Shown: piece by piece, positions 3,040 to 4,826 of the stretch
Layout: every line of letters begins with the position of its first letter
Position numbering within the stretch: position 1 is the first letter of the stretch
NCBI RefSeq assembly: GCF_003334315.1
Contig: NZ_QOWR01000078.1
Length of the DNA: 14,359 nucleotides
DNA from: Escherichia coli
Lineage (GTDB): Bacteria > Pseudomonadota > Gammaproteobacteria > Enterobacterales > Enterobacteriaceae
Strand: one strand, 5' to 3'
Position numbers and translations under genes: made by a program
Notes under the pieces: generated by a model
The model's database searches: none
The model's input: the letters and a program-made list of their open reading frames with translations, nothing else
Told to the model about the DNA's origin: nothing

Positions 3040-3768
3040 ATGACATTTATTAAAGGATTACCCTTAATGTTGTTAACCATCAGCTTGGGTTGCAATGCTG
3101 CGGTGCAACCCGATCGCACACGCATTGTGTTTAACGCCAATGACAAAGCCACCAGCCTGCGTATCGAAAACCAAAGTGACAAACTGCCTTATCTTGCTTA
3201 TTCCTGGATAGAAAATGAAAAAGGGGAGAAAAGCGATGCTCTTCTGGTCGCTTTGCCCCCTATTCAACGTCTGGAACCGAAAGCGACATCGCAGGTGCGG
3301 GTTGTGAAACAAGCCTCAACCACACAATTACCTGGCGATCGCGAAACGCTATTTTTCTACAATATGCGCGAAATTCCTCCCGCTCCGGATAAAAGCAGCG
3401 ACCATGCGATACTTCAGGTCGCTATTCAAAGTCGTATTAAATTGTTCTGGCGACCGGCTGCATTACGCAAGAAAGCAGGAGAAAAGGTCGAACTGCAGTT
3501 ACAGGTCAGCCAGCAGGGCAACCAACTGACACTGAAAAATCCTACCGCGTATTATCTGACCATTGCCTATCTGGGGAGAAATGAAAAAGGCGTTCTCCCA
3601 GGCTTCAAAACCGTGATGGTTGCACCTTTTAGTACGGTCAACACAAACACCGGAAGTTATAGCGGCAGCCAGTTTTATCTCGGTTACATGGATGATTACG
3701 GCGCATTACGCATGACGACGCTCAACTGCAGCGGACAATGTCGTTTACAAGCAGTGGAGGCGAAATGA
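3040..3768 (+). CDS. ybgP: Periplasmic fimbrial chaperone (PapD/FimC-like)
   Basis: ATG at 3040 preceded by AAGGAAAAG (Shine-Dalgarno-like, about 7 nt spacing); gives 242 aa with a signal peptide ([20 protein letters not shown]). The start lies 15 nt after the usher stop. Recognised as YbgP-like. Confidence 0.9.
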
Positions 3769-4826
3769 GTGCTGGCAAGGGATTGTTGCTCGTCATCTGC
3801 CTGTTATTTCTGCCGTTGAAGTCTGCAATGGCGCTGAACTGCTATTTTGGTACATCTGGTGGCGCAGTAGAAAAATCAGAAGCGATTCAACCGTTTGCTG
3901 TACCAGGCAATGCCAAACCCGGTGATAAGATCTGGGAATCTGACGATATTAAAATTCCCGTCTATTGTGACAACAATACCAACGGCAACTTTGAAAGCGA
4001 GCATGTCTACGCCTGGGTAAACCCCTATCCGGGGGTGCAGGATCGTTATTATCAACTCGGCGTGACATACAACGGTGTCGATTACGATGCCAGTCTGGGA
4101 AAAAGTCGCATCGACACTAACCAGTGTATCGACAGTAAGAACATTGATATTTATACCCCTGAGCAGATCATCGCGATGGGATGGCAGAACAAAATTTGCT
4201 CGGGCGATCCCGCTAATATTCATATGTCGCGTACCTTTCTCGCTCGCATGCGGTTATACGTCAAAATACGAGAAATGCCGCCGCATGATTATCAAAGTAC
4301 GCTTAGCGACTATATCGTCGTGCAATTTGACGGTGCCGGTAGCGTTAACGAAGACCCTACTGCCCAAAACCTGAAATATCATATTACTGGTCTGGAAAAC
4401 ATTCGCGTGCTGGATTGCAGCGTCAATTTTTCCATTTCACCGGAAACACAGGTGATTGATTTTGGTAAATTTAATTTGCTGGATATACGTCGCCACACAA
4501 TGTCGAAAACGTTCAGTATTAAAACGACCAAGAGCCAAAACGATCAATGCACCGACGGATTTAAAGTCAGTTCCTCCTTTTATACCGAAGAAACGTTGGT
4601 TGAAGAAGATAAAGCATTGTTGATTGGTAATGGTCTGAAGCTACGTTTACTGGATGAAAACGCCTCGCCTTATACCTTCAATAAATATGCTGAATACGCC
4701 GATTTCACCAGTGACATGTTGGTCTACGAAAAAACCTATACGGCTGAACTTTCGTCCATTCCAGGCACCCCCATCGAGGCTGGCCCCTTCGATACAGTGG
4801 TGCTTTTTAAGATTAACTATAACTGA
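3765..4826 (+). CDS. ybgO: Fimbrial adhesin-like or minor subunit protein, 353 aa
   Basis: ATG at 3765 overlaps the chaperone stop (ATGA); GGAGG lies 6 nt upstream. Signal peptide present ([23 protein letters not shown]). AT-rich coding sequence. Recognised as YbgO-like, the last gene of the operon. Confidence 0.85.

Follow-up and report, generated by a model that had tools for sequence, protein, structure and literature searches.

Positions 3040-4826 of a 14,359-nt stretch of an Escherichia coli chromosome (the whole of this stretch is referred to as the window) hold ybgP and ybgO, the chaperone and adhesin genes of the pi-class chaperone-usher operon ybgD-ybgQ-ybgP-ybgO, in the allele carried by K-12. 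With high confidence we interpret these genes as part of an old insertion that is moderately AT-rich and that is disabled in this strain by an IS1 element in ybgD, the gene of the major pilin. The operon would have been inserted between gltA and abrB/nei as a trait characteristic of the genus Escherichia, and would later have been swapped between lineages via homologous recombination. Its truly AT-rich part is the upstream ybgD promoter region with a G+C content (GC) of 29%; according to the literature H-NS binds there in K-12, where the operon is cryptic. The IS1 element at nt 502/503 of ybgD separates or deletes this promoter together with the major pilin gene, of which 65 nt at the 3' end are left, and the remaining usher, chaperone and adhesin would be unable to build a fibre and have no recognisable promoter of their own. 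Judged from sequence, transcription and assembly have probably been lost in this strain. Over evolutionary time the operon seems to have been kept under purifying selection, yet single lineages have lost it again and again, be it by insertion of IS1, by a nonsense or frameshift mutation of the usher gene, or by deletion.

The assignment of the span to ybgP and ybgO, with which it coincides exactly, is supported by both collinearity and domain content. Three strains are collinear with the inner 13,453 nt of the window, which are flanked by two partial inverted IS1 copies: K-12 MG1655 with 31 mismatches, S171-1 with 2, and ET245. Neither ybgP nor ybgO contains an internal stop, and all three remaining genes, ybgQ included, are free of stops and frameshifts; YbgQ and YbgO are 100% identical to their K-12 counterparts, and the single difference from K-12 within 454-4977 is a synonymous one at 3741 in ybgP. 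YbgQ has the features of a PapC-type usher, its residues 19-831 aligning to positions 2-828 of the 829 positions of the StdB model, and YbgP those of a PapD-type chaperone, with matches to 20 fimbrial chaperone models (top SteC, 4e-54). YbgO can be regarded as a two-domain tip adhesin, since its N-terminal receptor-binding domain (residues ~24-222) matches the PDB chains 9rx0_A and 9rww_A ('Fimbrial protein', 441 bits) and its C-terminal pilin domain (residues 218-353) matches Pfam PF00419 (Fimbrial). No publication on 9rx0/9rww was found in the literature searched. The same N-terminal domain (window 3834-4430) is also matched by the related adhesin domains 9rwu and 9rwe, at 121 and 85 bits. 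The Ybg operon has been classed as a pi-class chaperone-usher operon (PMC3032704, Table 5), and the Std/Stf/Ste-type models that rank highest for YbgQ and YbgP agree with this published label. What the window does not provide of such an operon is a complete major pilin gene, ybgD being reduced to its last 65 nt.

The two IS1 arms at 1-453 and 13907-14359 constitute a 453-nt inverted repeat that is 99% complementary, and transposase models match both of them. The left arm, which is oriented in the same way as the operon, terminates with ...GGAGTCATTACC at 453, and the next base is nt 503 of the 567 nt of ybgD (junction 502/503). The claim of the first-pass annotation that the subunit gene had been lost to IS1 is borne out to the extent that nothing but the last 65 nt of ybgD (454-518) follow the IS1 end. 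A contiguous copy of this left junction occurs in none of 5426 complete E. coli genomes. The left arm shows 1 mismatch to an IS1A copy and 3 to IS1B copies, and the right arm is identical to the IS1B copies of S171-1 and ET245; the two arms differ from each other at positions 78, 81 and 129, the left being IS1A-like and the right IS1B-like, and their right ends face inward. Such an arrangement would be expected of an IS1 compound element of 13.4 kb, and also of a contig that merely broke at repeats. In S171-1 an IS1B lies 59 nt upstream of an intact ybgD, and the IS1 event in the window is independent of that insertion, since the left arm differs from it at 3 positions. An origin by IS1 adjacent deletion from an S171-1-like ancestor was rejected for the left arm, which has 3 differences from the S171-1 copy and is nearer to IS1A; such an ancestor is further ruled out by the lack of a second IS1 in S171-1. 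Since ybgQ, ybgP and ybgO are sequence-perfect, the IS1 event is likely to be recent. Between the IS1 end and ybgQ (454-578) a promoter scan detected no sigma-70-like site, and there was likewise no excess of promoter-like intragenic sites (12 found, compared with 13.5±3.9 expected).

With respect to base composition, the first-pass annotation had described the ybgP-ybgO region as much more AT-rich than the flanking abrB, pxp and phr genes. The span is indeed richer in AT, with a GC of 46.1% (ybgP 47.6%, ybgO 44.9%, and 41.4% in the example stretch 4380-4560) against 50-58% in the flanking genes, but 'much' overstates the difference. In bins of 100 nt the mean GC of the span is 0.459, compared with 0.538 for 4978-13746 (Mann-Whitney p=5e-7) and with 0.517 for a background of 200 kb of K-12 sequence (p=9e-6). 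The 1787-bp span falls within the lowest 6.3% of background windows of equal size, and the 181-bp example within the lowest 4.9%. Relative to a background of 173 K-12 open reading frames (ORFs; mean GC 0.519, standard deviation 0.033), the GC of ybgP reaches the 8th percentile and that of ybgO the 3rd; ybgQ (GC 0.500) stands at the 21st. On the other side of the comparison, abrB, pxpA, pxpB and pxpC occupy the 94-100th percentiles and the flank bins exceed the background (p=5e-4), so that the contrast seen by eye was inflated because the flanks are unusually GC-rich. The AT content of ybgP-ybgO is clearly higher than the genome average, as would be expected of H-NS-silenced xenogeneic DNA, but the excess is moderate, and ybgQ taken as one piece is unremarkable. 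Low GC is moreover patchy, extending over ~300-1050 (the 5' part of ybgQ, with 0.41-0.45 in 300-nt windows across 451-1050) and over ~2850-5100, with values of 0.48-0.55 in mid-ybgQ. Within ybgO the pilin domain (0.417) has a lower GC than the N-terminal domain (0.468). By codon position, ybgO lies at the 3rd percentile for position 1, at the 19th for position 2 and at the 14th for position 3 (GC3 0.50), and its GC deficit, which peaks at position 1, is partly driven by amino-acid content. Nowhere in the window is GC lower than in the ybgI-dtpD intergenic region (9901-10350, 0.39-0.41), which lies outside the fimbrial genes.

Codon usage and dinucleotide frequencies gave a different result from GC. 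The codon adaptation index (CAI) was calculated with weights taken from 30 K-12 genes that encode ribosomal proteins and elongation factors. With values of 0.400 and 0.402, ybgO and ybgQ share the 44th percentile; ybgP reaches 0.334 (10th percentile), and the value for abrB is lower still (0.316, 7th percentile). This gene combines a very high GC (97th percentile) with its very low CAI. The Karlin codon bias of the ybg genes falls between the 43rd and 77th percentiles among genes of similar length, and 454-4826 does not stand out by its dinucleotide signature (delta* 46.8e-3, compared with 43.6±18.6e-3), 28.5% of background windows being at least as deviant. An argument for foreignness from composition was rejected, as CAI, Karlin codon bias and delta* revealed no anomaly. 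When GC in windows and codon adaptation are considered together, as had been suggested earlier, the fimbrial genes differ from their neighbours in GC but are indistinguishable from them in codon usage.

Horizontal acquisition of the locus is nevertheless borne out, by synteny and by the conflict between operon and flank phylogenies rather than by composition. In the loci of 80 enterobacterial species anchored on Nei, nei adjoins gltA in most Enterobacteriaceae, and the order nei-abrB-gltA is found in Citrobacter and Salmonella, abrB being confined to the Escherichia, Salmonella and Citrobacter loci of this sample. Only in Superficieibacter electus (L091) and in Escherichia (L018, L020, L022 and, for E. 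albertii, L023) does a ybgDQPO operon occupy the nei/abrB-gltA site, and a further Escherichia species (L021) is without it through loss. Citrobacter, Salmonella, Klebsiella, Enterobacter, Kluyvera, Buttiauxella and others have no such operon between nei and gltA. In S. electus the ybgDQPO-like operon (L091, 10923-16200) lies between nei and gltA without abrB, and its proteins share 60-74% amino acid identity with those of K-12. Between E. albertii and Superficieibacter, protein identity amounts to 75-78% for ybgQ, ybgP and ybgO and 60% for ybgD, compared with 54-73% between E. albertii and E. coli, whereas Nei shows the reverse relationship, with E. albertii sharing 93% identity with E. coli and 75% with Superficieibacter. 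Likewise, ybgDQPO of O157:H7 EDL933 (L005) and of Escherichia sp. E1V33 (L018) share 98.4-99.3% nucleotide identity with a synonymous divergence (dS) of 0.02-0.04, whereas the flanks are far more distant (gltA 92.4%, dS 0.42; nei 94.0%, dS 0.23; pxpA 93.4%). With 97.7%, abrB partly shares the near-identity of the operon, and ybgD-abrB of these two strains represents a clear patch of recombination between species.

Within E. coli, too, the locus has diverged much more strongly than the sequence around it. Identity to the locus in the window is at least 99% in 930 genomes, 95-99% in 370, 90-95% in 2729, 80-90% in 323 and 60-80% in 412. Among E. coli alleles dS reaches 1.2-1.7 in ybgD, 0.4-0.55 in ybgP and 0.2-0.4 in ybgO, compared with 0.02-0.2 in the flanks, and some strains are mosaic, with a foreign-type ybgD beside a K-12-type ybgP and ybgO and breakpoints within the operon. 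That positive selection produced this strong divergence was rejected at the whole-gene level, the ratio of nonsynonymous to synonymous divergence (dN/dS) being far below 1. In line with an external origin, ybgD/gltA has been listed in a GIST genomic island and as foreign according to Nakamura et al. and Lawrence & Ochman (PMC3661553, Table 1). Other species carry additional insertions at this chromosomal site: in E. whittamii (L019) ~9 kb separate abrB from ybgO, and in several Citrobacter (L028, L030, L031, L037 and L042) nei and abrB are ~6 kb apart.

For silencing of the locus by H-NS the support comes from the literature on K-12, and concerns a part of the operon that lies outside the window. 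In K-12 the ybgD-gltA spacer comprises 389 bp with 29% GC; ybgD/gltA has been described as a 'promoter island' with H-NS bound in all chromatin immunoprecipitation (ChIP) data sets compared (PMC3661553), and a constitutive sigma-70 promoter (TAAACA-16-TAAAAT) as well as an H-NS site have been reported upstream of ybgD (PMC3946193). Moreover, many cryptic chaperone-usher fimbriae are H-NS-repressed (PMC3559732, citing Korea et al. 2010). Here, however, the bound region is cut off by IS1. Within the window, the H-NS high-affinity-like motif TCGATAAATT occurs five times with at most 1 mismatch, compared with 0.98 expected, a number reached by 1 of 200 shuffled sequences. Since motif matches cluster at 583-849, H-NS binding may persist in the 5' part of ybgQ, and residual binding in this strain would be placed at 454-1050.

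The first-pass annotation had further suggested a locus under relaxed selection, which our data do not support for the history of the locus. Calculated against eight diverse alleles, dN/dS is 0.06-0.12 for ybgQ, 0.08-0.12 for ybgP, 0.04-0.08 for ybgO and 0.09-0.13 for ybgD, similar to the neighbours nei (0.07-0.24), phr (0.10-0.23) and ybgA (0.11-0.20); the range of 0.04-0.13 for the ybg genes is not raised over that of the flanks (0.03-0.29 overall). Taken together with the integrity of ybgQ, ybgP and ybgO, no sequence trace of relaxed constraint was observed, either historically or since the IS1 event. Additional inactivating mutations, for which a comparison with other strains had been proposed, do recur across strains but are absent from the remaining ybgQPO of this one. 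IS1 lies within ybgD at three other positions in STEC2018-607, 64EVA and H7 (in H7 together with a deletion), and IS1A within ybgO in NMBU-W12E19; in a related configuration, IS1B lies between ybgO and abrB in ET245. The usher gene carries stops or frameshifts in APEC 102026, FORC_031 and one EDL933 assembly; a nonsense mutation common to the O157 lineage was rejected, as the stop in that EDL933 assembly is found neither in O157:H7 Z1816 nor in SM107. Deletions have left 396 nt of ybgO in the B2 strain F11 and have removed the whole operon in WB61. The knock-outs and deletions, drawn from a non-random sample of strains that gives no rate, demonstrate that inactivation is recurrent, and 1265 of the 5426 complete genomes (~23%) lack at least 80% of the locus, while 4161 keep it. 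Consistent with this, Ybg has been described as 'core-associated' yet 'not intact in many strains' (Wurpel et al., PMC3559732).

Several points weigh against the interpretation of an acquired, silenced operon that has been put out of use by IS1. Both IS1 copies are cut by the ends of the window, and the 5' part of ybgD and the promoter may survive beyond the left one. The event at ybgD could then be a simple insertion rather than a loss, for which nt 1-502 of ybgD and a 9-bp duplication ATGCAGTCG would be expected beyond the left IS1, and read-through from IS1 into ybgQ is conceivable. In addition, composition alone would not mark ybgQPO as foreign, H-NS occupancy over ybgP-ybgO proper was not found in the literature searched, and ybg genes are transcribed in some wild Shiga toxin-producing E. 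coli isolates, so that 'silent' is not universal (PMC6033998).

Among the other explanations considered, the low GC could be mainly a by-product of secreted, beta-rich fimbrial proteins (Asn, Thr, Ser, Ile and Lys) instead of a sign of foreign origin or a silencing platform, an account that is possible though doubtful. The residues L, S, I, D, N, T and K are abundant in YbgO, and the concentration of its deficit at codon positions 1 and 2, the near-median codon bias and CAI of ybgO and ybgQ and the ordinary dinucleotide signature are what this account would predict. However, GC3 is low too (9th percentile in ybgP, 14th in ybgO and 2nd in K-12 ybgD), the ybgO orthologues in E. albertii and SCPM-O-B-8794 reach GC3 values of only 0.35-0.40, and synteny and phylogenetic incongruence show the horizontal history independently of composition. 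It is similarly possible, if somewhat improbable, that the locus is a decaying pseudo-operon which has long been dispensable and is drifting to loss under relaxed selection. Without ybgD the operon cannot work here, and the many independent knock-outs and deletions in other strains, the absence of at least 80% of the locus from 1265 genomes and the description by Wurpel et al. cited above are in agreement with decay, but the dN/dS values between allele classes equal or fall below those of nei, phr, pxpA and ybgA, ybgQ, ybgP and ybgO show no defect and depart from K-12 by a single synonymous change, most complete genomes keep the locus, and the divergent O157-type operons of SM107 and Z1816 are annotated as intact.

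As a speculative and rather unlikely proposal, the gltA-abrB site could serve as a fixed 'cassette' position where entire Ybg-type operons pass from one Escherichia species to another, and even across genera. Signs of such exchange are the match between the O157-type operon and that of E1V33, the greater similarity of the E. albertii operon to that of Superficieibacter than to that of E. coli, and, in K-12-type ybgD, dS values above 1 against other E. coli alleles together with mosaic breakpoints within the operon. Each allele would then be maintained by purifying selection but inactivated time and again, in many cases by IS1, a pattern due to fluctuating or frequency-dependent surface-antigen selection and not to the neutral decay of a silent relic. 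Least probable by far is that ybgQPO is still used in this strain, either from IS1 read-through or an internal promoter or with usher and chaperone serving the subunits of other operons, IS1 having rewired the system. In its favour are the flawless state of the three ORFs, the common orientation of IS1 and ybgQ, and a proposal of cross-operon usher use in Shigella that names ybgQ (PMC6854044). However, the sequence from the IS1 end to ybgQ contains no promoter-like site, the junction, inspected by eye, has no usable hybrid -35/-10, and perfect ORFs would be expected equally if the insertion were simply recent. IS1 insertions are, moreover, classically strongly polar, which also counts against continued use of ybgQPO. 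An old, repeatedly exchanged operon disabled here by IS1 in ybgD is therefore the explanation that we prefer. The features of the window on which this explanation is based, and those adjoining them, are listed in the table.

Table. Features of the 14,359-nt window, with coordinates counted from its first nucleotide.
Feature	Position	Strand	Remarks
IS1, 3' 453 nt (insB end and right inverted repeat)	1..453	+	window begins within the element; NCBIfam NF033558 on ORF 61-438
ybgD remnant, codons ~168-188 and stop of the major pilin gene	454..518	+	exact match to K-12 ybgD from nt 503/567
ybgQ, outer-membrane usher, intact	569..3025	+	full-length NCBIfam matches: StdB and other fimbrial usher models
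Cluster of three H-NS high-affinity-like motifs (TCGATAAATT, at most 1 mismatch)	583..849	.	at 583, 663 and 840; AT-rich 5' end of ybgQ
ybgP, PapD-like periplasmic chaperone, intact	3040..3768	+	NCBIfam SteC/StfD/StdC/FimC chaperone models
ybgO, two-domain tip adhesin, intact	3765..4826	+	PDB chain matches and Pfam PF00419
ybgO-abrB intergenic region, GC 0.43	4827..4977	+	right-hand edge of low-GC stretch; palindrome at 4926-4959
Stem-loop, possible operon terminator	4835..4862	+	10-bp perfect stem directly after the ybgO stop codon
abrB (4978-6024), then nei, pxpA, pxpC, pxpB, ybgI, dtpD, phr, ybgA	4978..13746		gene order after K-12 annotation
Second IS1, 3' 453 nt, inverted	13907..14359	-	in the final nucleotides of ybfD, upstream of ybgA; window ends within it

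Downstream of ybgO, the stem-loop has a predicted RNA folding energy of -17.6 kcal/mol (z=-3.5, equalled by 0 of 200 shuffles), and was not flagged by the terminator scan because of its weak T-run. Peaks of in vitro RNA polymerase SELEX (systematic evolution of ligands by exponential enrichment) for sigma-32, sigma-28 and sigma-E (PMC5493296) map to ~4730, according to our own conversion of the published coordinates to the window, in the AT-rich 3' end of ybgO and upstream of abrB. Together with the 23-nt palindrome that lies closely upstream of the abrB start (4926-4959), they may represent promoter or operator elements of abrB. Further downstream, 30 of the 31 differences from K-12 are concentrated in two stretches that resemble small patches of recombination, 6348-6952 with 12 sites in nei and pxpA and 12691-13111 with 18 sites in phr. 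The right IS1 junction is present as a contiguous sequence in FORC_031, the sole single-piece match among the 12 matches listed. There it is identical (window 13787-14026, corresponding to 16501-16740 of the FORC_031 locus L098) and located at the last 12 nt of ybfD (K-12 coordinate 8842 in locus L001). In FORC_031 this IS1 adjoins a truncated rhsC, the interval from ybfD to the 3' part of rhsC being deleted, and the strain has another ybgD allele and a frameshifted ybgQ.

The closest known system is ybgDQPO of K-12 (b0719-b0716, 'Ybg fimbriae'), which shares locus, gene order and allele as well as the flanking abrB, nei, pxpABC, ybgI, dtpD, phr and ybgA. K-12 differs in having an intact ybgD and the 389-bp promoter region beside gltA, whereas in the window IS1 replaces everything upstream of nt 503 of ybgD. 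Other cryptic, H-NS-repressed operons of K-12 (sfm, ycb/elf, yad, yeh, yra and yfc) belong to the same operon class and share the regulatory logic (PMC3559732, PMC3032704), and the AT-rich promoter regions of sfmA, elfA and yraH are H-NS-bound promoter islands listed together with ybgD/gltA (PMC3661553, Table 1). Unlike in these operons, documentation for ybg covers H-NS binding at the promoter rather than repression. Inactivation of one structural gene of an otherwise complete cryptic operon by an insertion sequence is likewise found in K-12 in IS2::yqiG and IS5::yhcE (PMC3032704, Table 5), although here the element is IS1, the target is the major subunit gene ybgD and the exact junction is absent from all 5426 complete genomes. 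In Salmonella, the Std, Stf and Ste systems with the pi-clade ushers StdB and SteB and the chaperones StdC, StfD and SteC provide the top NCBIfam models (StdB with 642 bits over the full length of YbgQ). They are relatives and not orthologues of Ybg, because the scores are far below the equivalog cut-offs (StdB 642 compared with 1289). At gltA-abrB, Salmonella carries no fimbrial operon (L025, L038).

The basics of this locus are already known, as Ybg is catalogued as a cryptic fimbria, its link to H-NS has been documented and its breakage in many strains has been noted. The useful outcome of our analysis lies in corrections. The compositional signal of ybgP-ybgO is modest and partly a contrast effect, with normal codon usage; the foreignness of the operon rests on synteny and allele incongruence; and dN/dS contradicts relaxed selection. 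Of some value as a side observation is that ybgD has repeatedly been struck by IS1, and the swapping of ybg operons at a fixed site would be of some value for studies of surface-antigen evolution in Escherichia.

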